Source: Escherichia phage EC121. Taken from it: a stretch of DNA of 64,000 bases. The stretch is taken from the sequence record NC_054909.1. One strand, given 5' to 3'. A model generated the notes under the pieces. It made no database searches and had not been told where the DNA came from. It saw only the letters and a list, made by a program, of their open reading frames with translations. The translations under genes were made by a program, and so were the position numbers. Shown here one piece after another: positions 7,068-37,806 of this stretch (position 1 is the stretch's first letter; the number at the start of each line of letters is the position of its first letter).

Positions 7068-7580
7068 TTATCTCATTTCAATAAAATCTACAAGTTCAGC
7101 ATGGGATTTGCGGAACATTACTTGGTGTCCGCCAATGATAACTTCATCTTCAGGAACTTCATAAATCGCAATGTACATTCCACGATCTTTTAAGTCTTCA
7201 CGCTCTTCTCGGGTGAACCATCTCATCATATCATATTCACTAGCGAAAGCAAAATGGTATAATGCAATAAACCGCGATGGAATATACTTTTCAGACGGTG
7301 AATAATTTTTATCCCATTTAGTTTTAATAGCATTATTAGCATTTTCAACTAATAACTTATCATCGTGTGGAATAGGAATACTTTCATGGCTTTCATAATT
7401 ATCGCTATGATGATGAAATGACGATGAATTAATACCACAAAATTTTAGCCAAGTTCGAGTTTTCATAGAATCAAATCCACGATAAGGAGTTGATTGCACG
7501 CATAACTCTTGCCTAATTTTCACTATACCACTATCATCATTTAATGCGCTAAACGATGATTCAACACGATAAATTTTCAT
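7068..7580 (-). CDS. hypothetical protein
   Basis: Track ORF trimmed to ATG at 7580 (MKIYRVESS...) with GAGGATAATAAA RBS; the longer track start falls inside the promoter. Confidence 0.5.
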   Translation of the reverse strand: MKIYRVESSFSALNDDSGIVKIRQELCVQSTPYRGFDSMKTRTWLKFCGINSSSFHHHSDNYESHESIPIPHDDKLLVENANNAIKTKWDKNYSPSEKYIPSRFIALYHFAFASEYDMMRWFTREEREDLKDRGMYIAIYEVPEDEVIIGGHQVMFRKSHAELVDFIEMR

Positions 7581-9060: not shown

Positions 9061-10380
9061 TCACACATAAAACACATCATAACGACCACGAGTGACACCA
9101 ACATAAAGAAGCTGCTGAGCTAGTTCAGCATCTGCATAATGAATACAAGGCGTATAGATGAAAGCACGGTCTACAGACATGCCCTGAGCTTTATGGAATG
9201 TTGATGCAGGAAGTGCTTTCACTTTACTAAACTGTGATTTAGCATCCCAAAAATCACTCCACGGAGCTTTTCCACCTTTATTCCAATTTTTATACGTTTC
9301 TGCCGTTTTACCTAAAAATAAGTTAAACTTATACAGCTCTTCATCAGATGAAATTATTTTAATCTTTTCACGATAATATTCATCATCGCCGTAAGTTTCT
9401 ACTGTTAAATCCCAATAACGAATTAGATATTCTCCAGAAACACCACGAGCTTTAACAAATGTTGATGTATACTCTGCTTCTATAATACGAACTAATTGTC
9501 CGTTATTAAAAATAATTTCTGACACAGGCTTTCCATCAATTTTATATGTTTTAATTAATGGTTCCTGCATTACAATAATTTCACCAACGATAAAATCTTT
9601 ATCAGTTTCAAAAATCTTTTTGCGAATAATGCTATTTAACTTGTCGACAGATTTATTCGTAAATGCCATTACGCGATTTTCAAACAAATCATCTAGCGAT
9701 TTTACGATTGAAAAATAATTTACCATAAAATCGCGTAAAGCGGTATCACCAGTAAATCCACGTACTCCATGCCCGTCAACAACTTTATCATAAATCCACT
9801 TACCGTTGCGAACATCAGTAGCTACATCAATAATAGGAGCATTACTGCGTTTAACTTCAGTGAGTTCACACTGATAAAAATCTTTATGCGTAAAGAATGG
9901 ACTGATATAAGCAGTGTTTTCTCCTGGGTCAACAGGTCTAATTTGCTTATTATCGCCTATTCCAATTATAGTACACCACGGCGGGATAGTTGAAAGCAGA
10001 ATTTTAAATAGCTTTCTATCATACATTGACACTTCGTCGCAGATTAATACTCTGCATTTAGCTAAATCCGGTACTTCTTTTTGTTCAAAAAGAACGTTTT
10101 CTTCATATGTTACCGGGTTAATTTTGAGAATACTGTGAATAGTACTCGCTTCTTTCCCTGACAGTTTAGAAAGAATCTTTTTAGCTGCATGAGTAGGAGC
10201 TGCTAAAATAATGCCAGTTTCGCCCGTAGATATTAAGGCTTCAATGATGAACTTAGTAAGAGTAGTCTTACCAGTACCAGCAGGTCCATTAATAGTTACA
10301 TGATGTTTCTTTTCTTTAATAGCCCTCATAACGATGTTAAAGGCATTTTTCTGGCCTTCGGTCAAATCATCAAATGTCAT
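9061..10380 (-). CDS. dda: Dda DNA helicase (SF1B)
   Basis: 439 aa; Walker A GPAGTGKT; near-identical to recalled T4 Dda over its full length. Confidence 0.97.
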   Translation of the reverse strand: MTFDDLTEGQKNAFNIVMRAIKEKKHHVTINGPAGTGKTTLTKFIIEALISTGETGIILAAPTHAAKKILSKLSGKEASTIHSILKINPVTYEENVLFEQKEVPDLAKCRVLICDEVSMYDRKLFKILLSTIPPWCTIIGIGDNKQIRPVDPGENTAYISPFFTHKDFYQCELTEVKRSNAPIIDVATDVRNGKWIYDKVVDGHGVRGFTGDTALRDFMVNYFSIVKSLDDLFENRVMAFTNKSVDKLNSIIRKKIFETDKDFIVGEIIVMQEPLIKTYKIDGKPVSEIIFNNGQLVRIIEAEYTSTFVKARGVSGEYLIRYWDLTVETYGDDEYYREKIKIISSDEELYKFNLFLGKTAETYKNWNKGGKAPWSDFWDAKSQFSKVKALPASTFHKAQGMSVDRAFIYTPCIHYADAELAQQLLYVGVTRGRYDVFYV

Positions 10381-10688
10381 CGTAAATTCCCTGCAATTGG
10401 TATACTAACAATACGCCCAGTATCTAAAATTCGCCGATATAATCTTTGTGTGTCTACATCAGGCTTAACATGTTTAACTTCTATTTTATTAAACCAAAAC
10501 TTGCGTGGAGTCTCAACTAATCTCGGAATTCCCATACCTAAAGCTAGTCGATACTGATCTTTAAGAGTGGTAAATACTTTATCAGCAATCTCCCTTTCAA
10601 AAAATACAGCAGGGCGGTGTTCATCAAGAGGAACAGGCACTGCAAATCCATCTTTGTCTCTATACACTATCGCATATACATAAAACAT
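10377..10688 (-). CDS. hypothetical protein (dda.1 position)
   Basis: 103-aa ORF overlapping dda start by 4 nt. Confidence 0.55.
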   Translation of the reverse strand: MFYVYAIVYRDKDGFAVPVPLDEHRPAVFFEREIADKVFTTLKDQYRLALGMGIPRLVETPRKFWFNKIEVKHVKPDVDTQRLYRRILDTGRIVSIPIAGNLR

Positions 10689-10689
10689 A

Positions 10690-11436
10690 TTATCCTCGGA
10701 TAAGTTTAAAAATTGAACAATTTAGCGGGTATCCTCTTTTCAGTTTAAGTTTATCAATAAAAGACAAGTTTTGATACCGCTCTACACCTTGAATAATTTT
10801 ATCACACATATCATATTGCATTTCTGCTTCTGACAACTTTTTCACAGTTTTCCAATCAGAGCCTTTAAGAAGAACGTTCAATTTAACAACTTCAGCGCCT
10901 TCTGCTATACGAGAACCATCAATACGAGCTTTGAGTGCTACAATCGTTAGCTTAATGTCAGAGGTTTGTTTTGATTTAGAAAGCTGAGAAATGTGTTCAA
11001 TTCGGTTTTCACGTTTTTTCTGTATAGCTTTAATTTGATTATAAGTCTTTTTGATTTTAGCCCATTTCTTTTCATCTAAATTTAGTTTATGAACTTTTTT
11101 CGCAGATGAACGACCAATTCGCAAAGCAAATAAATCACGCTTTTCAATCAACTCTTCTAAAGTATAATCAGAACGAAATGTATTATACTTTTTCTTTACT
11201 GCAATAACATTCCCTTTAATGTATCCAACGTTATTATCAAAACGTTCTAATGATAATTTCTCTCCTTCAATACGATTATCAAAAGGTTCTCCTGAGTAAG
11301 CGCAAACTTTCTGGTCTAAAATGTTCTTAATGTAATTGAAGTCTAAGTTAAAATCTTTAGAACGTCTTTTTGCAGATGCCTGAGTATGCTCTAAACGACG
11401 TTTAATTTTACGAATTTGATTATTAGACAGTTTCAT
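10690..11436 (-). CDS. srd: Srd-like protein (basic, about 29 kDa)
   Basis: 248-aa basic ORF at the position of T4 srd between dda and modA; assignment by position and size only. Confidence 0.45.
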   Translation of the reverse strand: MKLSNNQIRKIKRRLEHTQASAKRRSKDFNLDFNYIKNILDQKVCAYSGEPFDNRIEGEKLSLERFDNNVGYIKGNVIAVKKKYNTFRSDYTLEELIEKRDLFALRIGRSSAKKVHKLNLDEKKWAKIKKTYNQIKAIQKKRENRIEHISQLSKSKQTSDIKLTIVALKARIDGSRIAEGAEVVKLNVLLKGSDWKTVKKLSEAEMQYDMCDKIIQGVERYQNLSFIDKLKLKRGYPLNCSIFKLIRG

Positions 11437-11479
11437 ATTTTTCTCACATCTTACGGACGATTGACTACTATACTATAAC

Positions 11480-11510
11480 ATTTTTACCTTGGCTTGTAAA
11501 CAACTTTATG
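11480..11510 (-). promoter_or_regulatory. early promoter (GTTTAC, 17 nt, TATAGT)
   Basis: Minus strand GTTGTTTACAAGCCAAGGTAAAAATGTTATAGT upstream of the srd-like gene. Confidence 0.45.
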
Positions 11511-11558
11511 CAAAAATGCTTTAAAACTTTCGTGGTATAATGAATCTAAGTCCTTCCA

Positions 11559-12161
11559 TTATAGATTAAATCCTTCAAAATCAAGAGTATAGATAGTGTA
11601 TGTTGAATACTTTTTATACTCATATCTATCTGCAATTCTAAATACACTTCCAGCTGGTATCATTACTTCCTGTTCATCTGAAACTAATTCCATATTACGA
11701 TAACGATGGCTATCTGGAAACTTAAAACTCGGACTATATTCTTTACAACGTAGAGCTTTTATAGCATACTCCTGGAAATTAAACACCATAGGAGCTTTGA
11801 ATTCAAAAATAACTTGTGTGTTGTATTCTAATCCAGAAGCAAAGTGTAGAGCTATATTTTTATCATATGAAGCTGATACTACTTTATCAAATGTAATAAT
11901 ATCAATTCCTTGATTTAACACCTGTTTAGTCTCAACTGGAACACCTCTCCAAAGAGGTTTATCGTTTGGAACCAAACGAGATTTGATTATTTCATTTAAC
12001 CAAGAATGATCGTCTGGCTTATTAGTAATACAATGAATTAAAAGTTCAATTTCGGATAAATTAAATCCTTCAGAAAGTAATTCTTCACGAATAGAAGCAC
12101 GCACCGATGCATCCATTGATTTGATTTTAAAATCTTTTAATTGCATTGCTGAATATTTCAT
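11559..12161 (-). CDS. modA: ADP-ribosyltransferase ModA
   Basis: 200 aa; R-S-E triad context (WRGV..., SAS, EQEVMIP); size matches T4 ModA. Confidence 0.75.
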   Translation of the reverse strand: MKYSAMQLKDFKIKSMDASVRASIREELLSEGFNLSEIELLIHCITNKPDDHSWLNEIIKSRLVPNDKPLWRGVPVETKQVLNQGIDIITFDKVVSASYDKNIALHFASGLEYNTQVIFEFKAPMVFNFQEYAIKALRCKEYSPSFKFPDSHRYRNMELVSDEQEVMIPAGSVFRIADRYEYKKYSTYTIYTLDFEGFNL

Positions 12162-12781
12162 TCAACTACCTCAACATCATACACTTTAAATGTTCCAAAT
12201 GAATCGTGTAATTTTTCTTTTGAAATAGAAGTTATTTTATACTTTCCAATTGGAATCATCCATTCTTGTTCACGTACAATCATCATTAAGTTATCAGTAC
12301 GTTCTGAATCTAATCCATCAGTATCTTCATATGTATACTTAAACTCAGTATTAGGAGAAGAAAGTATAATATCGCTGATATGGTCAGAATAATTAAAAGC
12401 TTTATCAGTTTTTAAGCGAAATATTATTTCAGTGGAATATTCAACATAAGAAAAAGAACACGCTGTGTGCAAACTAGTAGTAAATGAATCTACTCTGCTC
12501 GTTGAAAACACTTCTCCGACTTGTAAATCTTTAATGAGTTCTTTTGTCGATTTTGATATACCACGATATAGCTGATAAGGCGATTTAGTTAAATGCTTTT
12601 TAACGATTTTATTCAACTGCTGATGAAGAGCTTCATTCTTTTTGGCTTCCATACATTGCCAAAGAATTGACTGTTCAAAGTCAGTAAATTTTTCACAGAC
12701 CTTTTTATACATATCATATTGAAAATCGACACTTTCAGCTTTTATAGATAACTGTTCAACATCTGCAAGATTAATAATCAT
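12158..12781 (-). CDS. modB: ADP-ribosyltransferase ModB
   Basis: 207 aa; paralog of ModA with YRGIS, STS, EQEWMIP motifs; 4-nt overlap with modA. Confidence 0.75.
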   Translation of the reverse strand: MIINLADVEQLSIKAESVDFQYDMYKKVCEKFTDFEQSILWQCMEAKKNEALHQQLNKIVKKHLTKSPYQLYRGISKSTKELIKDLQVGEVFSTSRVDSFTTSLHTACSFSYVEYSTEIIFRLKTDKAFNYSDHISDIILSSPNTEFKYTYEDTDGLDSERTDNLMMIVREQEWMIPIGKYKITSISKEKLHDSFGTFKVYDVEVVE

Positions 12782-12805
12782 GATAGCCTCCGTATACTTC
12801 AGAAG

Positions 12806-12838
12806 CTATCATATCATTGTTAGGAAGGAAAGTAAACA
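12806..12838 (-). promoter_or_regulatory. early promoter (GTTTAC ... ATATGAT)
   Basis: Minus strand GTTGTTTACTTTCCTTCCTAACAATGATATGAT upstream of modB. Confidence 0.45.
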
Positions 12839-16094: not shown

Positions 16095-17119
16095 ATCTTA
16101 GCATATTTAGATAGCCGCATTTTAGCCATCAACCCTTGAGCAATATTATTTTTCATATATTCCATAATTTGTTCAGGGGTTGCACCTTCCTTTCTAATCA
16201 TATCATTAACATCTTTTGATTTCCAGGGAGATTTGTCCCAAAACATAACCCTTTCTCCTGCATCAACTAATTTAGTCATTCGTTTAATAGTGTCAGGGTG
16301 ACGAGGTTCATTATCTAAAACCCATACACGTCTATCTTTAAATGGAACAATTTCTAGGTCTAATTGACCACCCGTAATAGCTATACCATTTTCAATAAAA
16401 AGTGAATCTATAGGTCCTTCTAGAACATATACATCACCATCTTTGACTCGTTCAACTCCATAGATTTTTGTTGCCTCAGGATAAGCTTTGATGGTGATAT
16501 ATTTTTGAGGAGCATCTTTCTTTAATGCACGTCCTTGAAAAGACTCGGCTTTTCCGTTAGCATTATAAATTGGAATAACAAGACGAGGCTCGGGCATTTC
16601 CTTTTTATATGTTCCTGGCGCTATACTATTAACTAATTTAGGCCATTCGGTTGTAAACCAAAGATATTTCCATTTATCCTTTGGAATACAACGAGCTTTT
16701 ACATATTTTATAATTGGATGGTCTTCCGCCAGTTTATCTAGTCTAATGCATGACGGAAGAGATTTAATTATTTTCTTCTCAGGTTGTTTAGAAAGTTCTT
16801 TAGGTTTTTCTACTGGACGACTTTTACCTTTTTCTTTTCTTATTTCAAAGATATACTCACGATATAAATCAGGTTCAAACTCCTTTAAATATATTCCGAT
16901 TGGTGCATGATAGTTACAGTTATAACAATGAATATTTCCTTCATTATTATCGCCATAATACCATCCACGGGCTTTATTTTGATCGGTTTTTGAATCTCCA
17001 CAAACAGGACATCTAAACCGTAATTTAAAAGTTGAACTATTATTTACTTGTGCGAATTTAGGTAAATGAGCTAATGCACGGTATGCAAACTCATTATCAA
17101 TCCAAGGTATTGATGACAT
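16091..17119 (-). CDS. 61: DNA primase gp61
   Basis: 342 aa; zinc ribbon CPVCGDS...CYNC and TOPRIM region; matches recalled T4 gp61. Confidence 0.96.
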   Translation of the reverse strand: MSSIPWIDNEFAYRALAHLPKFAQVNNSSTFKLRFRCPVCGDSKTDQNKARGWYYGDNNEGNIHCYNCNYHAPIGIYLKEFEPDLYREYIFEIRKEKGKSRPVEKPKELSKQPEKKIIKSLPSCIRLDKLAEDHPIIKYVKARCIPKDKWKYLWFTTEWPKLVNSIAPGTYKKEMPEPRLVIPIYNANGKAESFQGRALKKDAPQKYITIKAYPEATKIYGVERVKDGDVYVLEGPIDSLFIENGIAITGGQLDLEIVPFKDRRVWVLDNEPRHPDTIKRMTKLVDAGERVMFWDKSPWKSKDVNDMIRKEGATPEQIMEYMKNNIAQGLMAKMRLSKYAKI

Positions 17120-25235: not shown

Positions 25236-27932
25236 TCAGCCAAACAGGAAGTCTAACGAAGCTTTTTCTTCATAGTCCATACCAGCCGATTCACACATGC
25301 CTGCAAGCGGTTTAACAAACGATTTTTGGAACAAAGTTGAGTAGTCAATCCAAGACAGTACATCAGAACGAATTTCTTTTGGAAGTTCTGTACCCGACGG
25401 CCAAGCAATGCACTTGTCACCAAATGGATTTCCCTCACGTAATGGAAGAACCATTACTTTATTTCCATCCAAAATTGGAGCTACACCCAGACCACTAACA
25501 GCTCGACGATAAGTTAGCACCCCACGAATATGGAACGGGCATTTAAATCCTGGCCAACCTTTATCATCATATTTCGCTATATCGTTCGCAGTTTTTACTT
25601 CAGCAATAACTTTATAGTCAAGTTGACGATATTCTTTCTCAAAGTTCTTATAATATTCTTGAACAGACTCTTCGCCTTCTTGAAGAATACGACGGATACT
25701 TTCTTCAAGAGCTTCTTGGACCGCTTTAGGCGTTGAACTCTGCTGAGTTTCCATACCCATGATTTTTAGATGCGGTTCAGCAAATCGCTTATCTTCCATA
25801 TCATAAACGTTCAGAGCATAACGCTTTTTCGCTTTCCAAAATCCACCAACGCCCTTTGAACCAAGTGGAGGGCAAGAAATAGCTTCACGGTCCATATGCA
25901 TCAGATGCTCGCGGTTATTCATATAATCACATAACTCACGATATGCAACATCAATCATAGGTTCCATCTTTTTCTTACCGAACTGATTCATGAATTCAAC
26001 TAAATCGTTCTGCTCTTTGAATCGGTCAAGACCAACTTTTTCAATAACTTTATCTACACAAACATATACCGAATCAGTATCACCTGCTGCGATGAAATCT
26101 TCGCCATTAGTTCCACATACTTTATTCAGATACTCATTAATTTTACGAGCAATCCACTGAATACCGACTTGGCCGAAAATTGTGATAGCAGTAGCATTTC
26201 GCAAATCATAGTAGCGGAAATGAATATTACCAAGAGCACCGTAAAGGCTGTTAATAAGAATTTTACGGTTCAGCTGATTTGTATTAGCAAGTGTAGCCGC
26301 TTTTTCACATTCTTCAATCAAACTATTGAGAACAGATTCAGTATAATTCGATAGTTCATTTAAGAAATCATCACTGAACTTAACATATCGTTTAACTTCA
26401 GGTTTAGTTGAACAAGACCCTGCGCCTTTCATAATAATCTTTTTAATAGCTTCGGCATTCATTTCTTCGGCGAACATTTTCTTTTTCCAGTCTTTACGCT
26501 GGAAAAATACTTTAGCGATTTCCTTTGGAATGATACCTTCTTGATGCTTATCATACATCCATCCATTCGGAGAACAAGAATATTCATCACTCGGTTTAGG
26601 AGCTGTTCCTGCGATATATTCATGAATTGGATGAACTTTAAACTGACCACGAATAGTCTCAGGACTAATGTTAACCTGACGAATAATGCTAGGATACAGA
26701 GACGTCAAGTCAAAACTCATAATATATCGACGAGCAATTGGTTTAGGTTCAAACACAAATGCACCCGGAAAACTTTGTTTAACGTGCGAACCTTGTTGAG
26801 GAATAACCTTATGTTCACCTTTCAATGAGTTAAAAATAATAGCATCCCAAGTTTTAATAGGACTCATTACACCAGAAAAAGGCATTTTAGCGTAATAAGA
26901 CATACTTAAAACTAGATCGATAAACCCGCGAATTTTATCAATTGCTTGAACTGATTCTACGTCAATGATGTTATAACTGATATATCGTTGATGATTAGTC
27001 TCACGAAGTTTATTAATAGGACCATCGTACGGTAATTTACCTTTTTTGGTTTCATGCTGAGCAACTGATTCCAAAGAGAATGACGGCAAATTAGTAAATG
27101 CGAATTTCTTATACAAATCTAAATAATCAAGAATAGATACGCCATCAATAGAATAAATTTCTTTGCTACCGTACATATTTTGAATTAGTTTAGATTTTAC
27201 TCGACCGATTGGAGAGAAACGTTTCATACTGCGTTCACCGAGAACCATTTTAACGCGATTCATGATATACGGAACGTCAAATCCCTCAATATTCCAACCA
27301 GTAAAAATAGCAGGTCGTTTCTGTTCCCAAAGATTGATATATTCCATGAGCATATCGCGCTCATTATCGAATGGCATATAAATTACTCGGTCAAGAATTT
27401 CTTGAGGAACTTCATCACCACCTTCACAGTCAAGCTTAGCAGCTAACTTTGCGTCCCATTTTGATACTGAACCATACATTGAATTCAAAAGGTCGAAAAC
27501 ATAAAAACGATCATCAATTGAATCGTAATGAGTGATAGCATCAATTTCATATTCAGCTTTCATTGGGTCAGGAAATTTATCACCAGTAACCTCAATGTCA
27601 CAGTTAGCTACACGAACAAATTTTCGGTCATAAACAATTTCTGAACCGTATGTATCACTGATATAAGCGAGTTTAAAATCGTTCATACCGAGAGCTTCGA
27701 GACCGATGTCTTCCATTCGTTTCATCCAATCTCGAGCATCTTTCATTGATGGAAATTTTTGAGGAGCGCAGTTTTTACCATAGATGTCTTTGTACTTTGA
27801 CTCTTCCTTACAATGTCTAAACATAGTTGGAAGATATTCTACTTCACGAGTACGTTCCTTTCCGTTTTCATCAATATAACGTTCAACAATGTTATTTCCG
27901 ACTGTTTCGATAGAGATATAAAATTCTTTCAT
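25236..27932 (-). CDS. 43: DNA polymerase gp43 (family B)
   Basis: 898 aa; matches recalled T4 gp43. Confidence 0.98.
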   Translation of the reverse strand: MKEFYISIETVGNNIVERYIDENGKERTREVEYLPTMFRHCKEESKYKDIYGKNCAPQKFPSMKDARDWMKRMEDIGLEALGMNDFKLAYISDTYGSEIVYDRKFVRVANCDIEVTGDKFPDPMKAEYEIDAITHYDSIDDRFYVFDLLNSMYGSVSKWDAKLAAKLDCEGGDEVPQEILDRVIYMPFDNERDMLMEYINLWEQKRPAIFTGWNIEGFDVPYIMNRVKMVLGERSMKRFSPIGRVKSKLIQNMYGSKEIYSIDGVSILDYLDLYKKFAFTNLPSFSLESVAQHETKKGKLPYDGPINKLRETNHQRYISYNIIDVESVQAIDKIRGFIDLVLSMSYYAKMPFSGVMSPIKTWDAIIFNSLKGEHKVIPQQGSHVKQSFPGAFVFEPKPIARRYIMSFDLTSLYPSIIRQVNISPETIRGQFKVHPIHEYIAGTAPKPSDEYSCSPNGWMYDKHQEGIIPKEIAKVFFQRKDWKKKMFAEEMNAEAIKKIIMKGAGSCSTKPEVKRYVKFSDDFLNELSNYTESVLNSLIEECEKAATLANTNQLNRKILINSLYGALGNIHFRYYDLRNATAITIFGQVGIQWIARKINEYLNKVCGTNGEDFIAAGDTDSVYVCVDKVIEKVGLDRFKEQNDLVEFMNQFGKKKMEPMIDVAYRELCDYMNNREHLMHMDREAISCPPLGSKGVGGFWKAKKRYALNVYDMEDKRFAEPHLKIMGMETQQSSTPKAVQEALEESIRRILQEGEESVQEYYKNFEKEYRQLDYKVIAEVKTANDIAKYDDKGWPGFKCPFHIRGVLTYRRAVSGLGVAPILDGNKVMVLPLREGNPFGDKCIAWPSGTELPKEIRSDVLSWIDYSTLFQKSFVKPLAGMCESAGMDYEEKASLDFLFG

Positions 27933-37563: not shown

Positions 37564-37806
37564 TTAATATCCTCATTGTTTTGGTTTATTTTACCAAAAA
37601 TTTATAAAGCAATATAGGAGCCGAAGCTCCTATCCGCATAATACACCATACAGAGGCTCATTAGAGCTTCTAAATTTTATACGCTTATATGTTATAGTTC
37701 CTTCTGCTTTAGCTTTATCATGAGACTCTTTAAAGCGTCTCATCATTTCTGCTTTAGAGGAACGAATTTTATTATAATCTATTTCAGAAGTCTGGGTGTT
37801 CATCTT

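Follow-up and report, generated by a model that had tools for sequence, protein, structure and literature searches.

A candidate MotA-type middle promoter aimed at the 3' end of modA, on the strand opposite to the mapped middle promoters of T4

Introduction

Can a middle promoter of a T4-like phage face the wrong way, and what would it do if it read back into the early genes modA and modB? Middle transcription of T4 is a textbook system, and all 58 of its mapped middle promoters lie on one strand, the minus strand of the record (PMC2988021, Table 1). The question is raised by the spacer between srd and modA in Escherichia phage EC121 (NC_054909.1), of which a stretch of 64,000 nucleotides, here called the window, was analysed. 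Classical strand-hybridisation work put prereplicative RNA on the strand other than the one such a promoter would use. In T4, a MotA box has the consensus (a/t)(a/t)(a/t)TGCTTtA and lies 12 +/- 1 bp before a sigma-70 -10 element, TAtaaT (PMC2988021). ModA is an early, highly toxic protein that modifies both RNA polymerase alpha subunits; early shut-off in general is reportedly unchanged by deletion of modA (PMC2988021), so tight control of the mod genes is not required.

Results

The srd/modA locus

The region comes from a T4-like phage of the genus Tequatrovirus, with 97.8% identity to the best-matching records over 1.7 kb. About 500 records match this 1.7-kb region, and a scan of IMG/VR gave only six close relatives. 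In this area, a T4 coordinate (NC_000866) equals the window coordinate plus about 349. Every local gene is encoded on the minus strand, opposite to the candidate promoter; the genes were assigned from open reading frames (ORFs) and homologue annotation. The features are as follows.

9061-10380, minus strand: dda
10377-10688, minus strand: dda.1
10690-11436, minus strand: srd, whose early promoter abuts the antisense promoter
11437-11558: srd/modA intergenic spacer, 122 bp, containing the candidate promoter
11472-11501, minus strand: T4 early-type promoter of srd, with -35 GTTTAC (11501-11496), a TG and -10 TATAGT (11477-11472)
11514-11523, plus strand: MotA box aaaTGCTTTA, centred near -30 and fitting the consensus
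11524-11535, plus strand: 12-nt spacer with an extended -10 (TGn), T11533 and G11534 being at -15/-14
11536-11541, plus strand: -10 hexamer TATAAT, read from the sequence
11542-11556, plus strand: discriminator and initial transcribed sequence gaatctAagtccttc, with the predicted start at A11548
11536-11544 and 11555-11563: arms of an inverted repeat, TATAATGAA / TCCATTATA, covering the -10, +1 and the modA stop codon
11559-12161, minus strand: modA, RNA polymerase alpha ADP-ribosyltransferase, a 200-aa ORF
12158-12781, minus strand: modB, ADP-ribosyltransferase

A plus-strand transcript would meet modA first and modB second. The srd early promoter scores 10/12, with the TG, in a promoter scan, and OL960580, NC_054924 and X98695 carry an early-promoter annotation on the homologous sequence. 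As it occupies the minus strand of the same spacer, the two promoters stand back-to-back in this phage.

Two further elements were seen nearby. In the 5' untranslated region of srd, an 11-nt motif (window 11449-11459; plus strand tcttacggacg, sense strand CGTCCGTAAGA) is kept in Tequatro-, Mosig-, Gapriver- and Dhakavirus, and in Klebsiella phage Roth66 it is found inside the spacer of the antisense promoter. At the 5' extremity of modB, a 14-bp hairpin (window 12779-12813, minus strand) hides the Shine-Dalgarno sequence GGAGG and the start codon. An early-type promoter, TTTACT-17-TATGAT (12836-12808), immediately precedes the hairpin, which resembles a translational gate or a stem-loop cassette of an early promoter.

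Anatomy of the element

A first-pass annotation had placed a MotA-type promoter at 11505-11550, and direct reading of the plus strand confirms that these coordinates enclose the whole element. It consists of aaaaaTGCTTTA, with the box at 11517-11523, followed by the 12-nt spacer aaactttcgTGg, TATAAT and gaatctAagtcc. The anatomy that had been proposed, TGCTTTA, 12 nt with a TG at -15/-14, then TATAAT at 11536-11541, is thus as described, and so is its aim: the element is within the srd/modA spacer and points at the 3' end of modA. The distance of 12 nt between box and hexamer agrees with that of T4 middle promoters, and the start predicted at about 11548 falls 11 nt short of the modA stop codon (11559-11561). 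At a spacing of 17 bp, the -35 position reads aaaatg, matching TTGACA at only 1/6 positions; the architecture is therefore that of a MotA box with a -10, not of a -35/-10 pair. A scan for sigma-70 promoters did not call the antisense site.

Statistical exceptionality

The first-pass annotation had judged such a match unlikely by chance. This was right but understated. The exact string TGCTTTA-N12-TATAAT occurs once on both strands of the 64 kb, where 0.05 occurrences are expected, and dinucleotide shuffling yielded a single exact copy in 5/100 cases. With the spacing relaxed to N11-13, two further matches appear, both on the minus strand and both strong middle-promoter sites by matrix score.

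For scoring, a position weight matrix was made from 55 of the 58 mapped T4 middle promoters, with boxes and -10 regions aligned. When either strand of the window was scanned, the antisense site ranked first at 24.11 bits, followed by a site of 21.18 bits; the next plus-strand site reached 17.06 bits. In T4, both strands being scanned, neither of the top two sites is a mapped promoter and each lies on the plus strand: about 76,000 (23.19 bits) and about 11,897 (23.17 bits), the latter being the homologue of the window site. PuvsY ranks third with 22.79 bits, the mapped promoters ranging from about 12 to 22.8 bits. The remaining T4 matches of at least 18.7 bits are all mapped promoters, and the next plus-strand match scores only 15.2 bits. 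An order-3 Markov null of the T4 plus strand gave 0.05 matches of at least 20 bits per 169-kb strand and zero of at least 23 bits in 200 simulations. On the shuffles, the matrix ranking and the Markov null, a chance match was rejected.

The scans also returned sites of separate interest. The second-best plus-strand match in the window, TTCTGCTTTA-13-TATTAT at about 37,745-37,782 (the site of 17.06 bits), is within the chance range, the mean maximum of the null being 17.1 bits. On the T4 minus strand (NC_000866), an unlisted site with a start at about 132,780, AACCGCTTTA-13-TATAAT, scores 18.64 bits; at the listed Pcd start, 132,839, there is no recognisable box or -10. Two coordinates in the published table are shortened: 6440 for PnrdD stands for 46,440 and 65227 for P52 stands for 165,227.

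Relation to PuvsY and other promoter cassettes

From -16 to +7, the sequence CGTGGTATAATGAATCTAAGTCC is identical to the T4 PuvsY promoter over 23 nt in the window and over 21 nt in T4, and the T4 homologue matches PuvsY at 27/29 positions when the comparison is extended to +13 (-16 to +13). The mapped start of PuvsY is the same A as the predicted A11548. The site is therefore an inverted-orientation copy of a promoter cassette known to work. It belongs to a small cassette family, together with PuvsY, PnrdC.7 (TGGTATAATGGTTCTAAGCCC) and a plus-strand site at 76.0 kb in T4 (TGGTATAATGGGTCTAAGTCCCTTCCATT); PuvsY and PnrdC.7 have been mapped experimentally (PMC2988021, Table 1). A 52-nt query found three places in most Tequatrovirus records, among the matches listed, and three to four paralogous copies of the cassette are present per Tequatrovirus genome.

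MotA box, extended -10 and start nucleotide are common to the antisense site and PuvsY, but the latter has TGCTTCA at 13 bp, where the window site has TGCTTTA at 12 bp. PuvsY is the promoter of uvsY and of oriF, whereas the window site has no following gene and reads antisense into modA; it lies on the opposite strand to every mapped middle promoter. In T4 P34i (oriG), a MotA-type promoter is likewise antisense to the adjoining or enclosing gene and gives a non-coding transcript; however, P34i uses the same strand as the other prereplicative promoters, is located inside a late gene, and has an experimentally supported role as an origin.

The T4 site at 76.0 kb is a second antisense site, cataATGCTTTA-13-TATAATgggtctAagtcccttccatt, in the gene 3 / gene 2 spacer on the plus strand (NC_000866, about 75,960-76,000; 23.19 bits). 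It carries the same cassette, is also placed between two minus-strand genes and is also aimed at the 3' end of the upstream gene, but it faces late genes (2 and 4), where the window site faces early toxic genes. The same place and orientation are observed in Mosigvirus and Gelderlandvirus. The copies, all outside the window, are those of T4 (L005, about 25,960-26,000), PhAPEC2 (L030, about 7,225-7,265) and S16 (L031, about 1,750-1,790). Downstream, a purine- or A-rich stretch of 40-50 nt can be discerned by eye in the three phages; in T4, purines account for 60% and A for 47% of positions +1 to +60, which recalls the unwinding element of oriF. A free stretch of this kind, purine-rich and about 50 nt long, distinguishes the T4 site from that of the window. 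The published list of 58 mapped middle promoters has no entry for the gene 3 / gene 2 site.

Conservation within Tequatrovirus and across genera

The 52-nt segment is present at 90% identity or more in about 500 records. The element is kept in all 13 aligned Tequatrovirus spacers, with changes only at positions where the consensus is degenerate. The MotA box is invariant in 12/13, the exception (L017) having the consensus-allowed TGCTTCA, and the -10 TATAAT is invariant in all 13 as well as in all ten genera examined. The variation comprises an indel or substitution immediately before the box and two spacer positions (C/A, and G/A at -16); one phage (L020) has lost the TG, by a change from TGG to TTG.

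In more distant genera, Srd identity is only 35-49%, and the mod-srd spacers of Mosigvirus and Gaprivervirus cannot be aligned to the window by blastn. An antisense MotA-box/-10 promoter with a spacer length of 12-13 is nevertheless found directly behind a mod gene in ten genera. The antisense sites outside Tequatrovirus read as follows.

PhAPEC2 (Mosigvirus): aaATGCTTTA-13-TATAATggttctgag, 23.2 bits
VR25 and CJ20 (Gaprivervirus): aACGCTTTT-12-TATAATggttctaagg
WG01 (Dhakavirus): ttTTGCTTTA-12-TATAATgaatcaagg
CC31 (Karamvirus): atATGCTTTT-13-TATAATggtttcaagg
Marfa (Marfavirus): ttTTGCTTTA-13-TATAATggtttcatgg, 21.2 bits
S16 (Gelderlandvirus): ttTTGCTTTT-13-TATAATggtttcaagg, 20.4 bits
Roth66 (Klebsiella phage): aaATGCTTTC-13-TATAATgggtctagg
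Q7622 (Kanagawavirus): cTTGCTTTT-13-TATAATggttctgagg
X20 (Winklervirus): tgTGCTTTA-13-TATAATgaatcaagg

When the sites are anchored on the -10, what is kept is the GCTTT core, the distance of 12-13 bp, gG-TATAAT-G and a start A(a/g)G, while spacer and flanks are free; the discriminator and start follow the pattern G-(g/a)-(t/a)-T-..-A-(a/g)-G. Judged by its sequence, this is the pattern of a promoter and not of a structured RNA or the remains of a coding sequence.

The position behind mod is conserved, but the position relative to the srd early promoter varies. Phages of the T4, Mosig-, Gapriver-, Dhaka- and Kanagawavirus types have the two promoters back-to-back. Marfa carries an insertion of dmd between mod and srd; the antisense promoter remains with the mod 3' end, and the mod-side spacer contains no early promoter. 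In S16 (L024), CC31 (L022) and X20 (L033), the sense early and antisense middle promoters are face-to-face with near-coincident starts, so that each is inside the transcribed region of the other and the two should be mutually exclusive. An UP element of the srd early promoter was rejected as the cause of conservation, the box not being upstream of an early promoter in S16, CC31, X20, Roth66 and Marfa.

MotA homologues are found in 1,140 records from phages of Escherichia, Klebsiella, Salmonella, Enterobacter and Serratia and, counted at the level of the group, are widespread where the antisense site is present; motA is present at 95% identity or more in 492 records, relatives of this phage. 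T4 motA and asiA map at about 161-163 kb, outside the window. Krischvirus has been reported to be devoid of motA and of middle promoters (PMC1524935), and in the one Krischvirus genome scanned, the single negative control, which has the mod-srd pair, no site of at least 10 bits was found on either strand of 3.3 kb.

With the highest score in the window, a core copied from a proven T4 promoter and presence in ten genera, the element is, on sequence grounds, very probably a functional MotA-type promoter.

The predicted transcript

No ORF longer than 38 aa is present on the plus strand downstream of the start, and no ribosome-binding site was seen by eye after it; a hidden plus-strand gene was therefore discarded. 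A known or structured small RNA was also rejected: the first 153 nt of the predicted RNA have no significant fold, and the downstream plus-strand sequence matches no Rfam family. The lack of a longer ORF and of an Rfam match fits a non-coding role. As terminators, the plus strand offers only weak hairpins, at 11943-11958 and 11962-11979. An anti-Shine-Dalgarno function for the UCCUUCC at the 5' end of the RNA was dropped, because S16, CC31 and X20 carry AAGGA there.

The promoter converges on the 3' end of modA, which is the geometry of a cis-antisense regulator. A precedent is the OOP RNA of phage lambda, a terminated RNA of 77 nt that acts on the cII mRNA via RNase III. In both cases, the promoter is just past the 3' end of a regulatory gene and fires back, or would fire back, into that gene. 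The OOP RNA lowers expression of its target, as the predicted RNA of the window site may do; the window site would differ in needing phage activators and in being without a convincing terminator that would make a short RNA.

Discussion

Antisense transcription of modA and modB

The explanation that we favour, and consider somewhat more probable than all others together, is that the site is a genuine middle promoter dependent on MotA and AsiA (that is, on sigma appropriation), that it transcribes into modA and modB, and that shut-off of mod is the likely consequence. The early proteins MotA and AsiA would remodel the host RNA polymerase, which would then initiate at about 11548; the predicted non-coding RNA would run head-on into modA and then into modB. 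In this way, the toxic early mod transcription unit could be shut off at the early-to-middle switch, through collision with polymerases that started at the modB early promoter, through antisense pairing with the modB-modA mRNA, or both. In genomes of the T4 type, there may in addition be competition with the abutting srd early promoter, and in some genomes polymerase may also be excluded from the adjacent early promoter.

Position and conservation make the role in mod shut-off plausible. Anatomy, exceptional score, paralogy and conservation are observed directly; from them we infer that the promoter fires, when it would do so, and what its RNA, or its transcription as such, would bring about. 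A match to the consensus is no guarantee of activity on modified T4 DNA, as GATT-box sites that are silent in vivo illustrate (PMC2988021).

Alternative explanations

What matters could be occupancy of the site rather than the RNA: polymerase with MotA and AsiA, held in a stable open complex, might block read-through from modB-modA into srd-dda, occlude the srd early promoter from the onset of middle mode, or both. The face-to-face arrangement in S16, CC31 and X20 is consistent with this, since near-coincident starts make it impossible for two polymerases to bind at once. In the T4 type, the MotA box is 16 bp upstream of the early -35, in the zone of an UP element. The G-rich discriminator (TATAATGG/GA) is also conserved. 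Discriminators of this sort favour long-lived open complexes. However, Marfa retains the antisense promoter in a spacer devoid of an early promoter, and it is the position behind mod, not the arrangement towards the early promoter, that has been maintained. We consider occupancy as the main function rather unlikely; occupancy and transcription are compatible and do not exclude each other.

Given that its core is a near-copy of the oriF promoter, the site might instead be of the origin type, as in oriF (PuvsY) and oriG (P34i), its RNA forming an R-loop from which rightward leading-strand DNA synthesis would be primed. P34i is also antisense and yields a non-coding transcript, and oriF and oriG each combine a MotA-dependent promoter with a downstream unwinding element (PMC3016281). 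The first of these components is present here at the level of sequence; the second is not distinctive, positions +1 to +60 having 72% A+T, compared with 67.7 +/- 5.4% for all mapped middle promoters and 70% for oriF, and this stretch is also constrained as modA coding sequence. Moreover, the T4 origins mapped so far are elsewhere: oriA near soc, oriC near rI.-1, oriE near repEA, oriF and oriG. With annotated or reviewed positions at 16,763 (oriA), near rI.-1, 79,355, 115,321 and 152,947, none coincides with the antisense site at 11,897, which is about 4.9 kb away from oriA. An origin function is an unlikely alternative to antisense control of mod.

A small chance remains that the element is an inert copy of the cassette, derived by recombination or gene conversion from PuvsY-like promoters and either tolerated unused or silenced on modified DNA. 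The three to four paralogues per Tequatrovirus genome would provide the source, the site is missing from the mapped promoters, and silent consensus-like sites exist (PMC2988021). Against this, a relic should decay, but here position and orientation are conserved in ten genera despite turnover of the surroundings, changes are confined to degenerate positions, and the element is absent from the single genome scanned of Krischvirus, a genus reported to be without MotA.

Finally, conservation might concern a 3' stem-loop or terminator of the sense modB-modA mRNA, the promoter look being a by-product; this is very unlikely and was rejected. The inverted repeat over the -10, +1 and modA stop codon does form a 9-bp stem in the minus-strand RNA fold, with slightly better pairing there (G.U where the plus strand has A.C), but the fold of the whole region does not exceed shuffled sequences in stability (z = -0.8), no U-tract follows the stem and the terminator scan was negative. 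The stem is broken in one Tequatrovirus copy (L011), and other genera lose it while keeping box, spacing and -10. The homologous sequence, read in the same direction, is a proven promoter in PuvsY and PnrdC.7. As it is not kept across genera, the inverted repeat is probably incidental.

Relation to earlier work

None of the 58 mapped T4 middle promoters corresponds to the antisense site, the nearest being Pdda.1 at 11,138 (PMC2988021, Table 1). Nor is the site annotated in NC_000866, AF158101, X98695 or the other GenBank records inspected, in which only the sense early promoter is marked, and the accessible T4 reviews do not mention it; an earlier mention in older papers is possible. A differential RNA-seq study of T4 (GEO GSE255091; bioRxiv 10.1101/2024.04.04.588121) with samples at 0, 4, 10 and 20 min, mapped to NC_000866.4, reports 150 phage start sites, 22 of them antisense, and the site may already be in those data. 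Judging from its sequence features, it is very probably a new, oddly oriented addition to the well-known class of T4 middle promoters.

Implications for T4-like phages

The two best matrix matches in T4 both read the opposite strand into genes, one of them into modA. A broader proposal, which we put forward tentatively and regard as possible but doubtful, is that T4-like phages have a small, conserved class of very strong wrong-strand MotA-dependent promoters, at least two per genome (at mod and in the gene 2/3 spacer), whose prereplicative antisense RNA would enforce the temporal switch by silencing the toxic early ADP-ribosyltransferases and restraining late genes. If this is true, the class would add a level of T4 gene control that has gone unrecognised and would break the one-strand rule for prereplicative transcription. 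Should the sites be silent, they would be a clean example of what middle-promoter activity on modified T4 DNA requires beyond sequence. If they fire, T4 would use sigma appropriation to silence an early unit as well as to activate genes, which would offer a practical way to study the shut-off of early expression.
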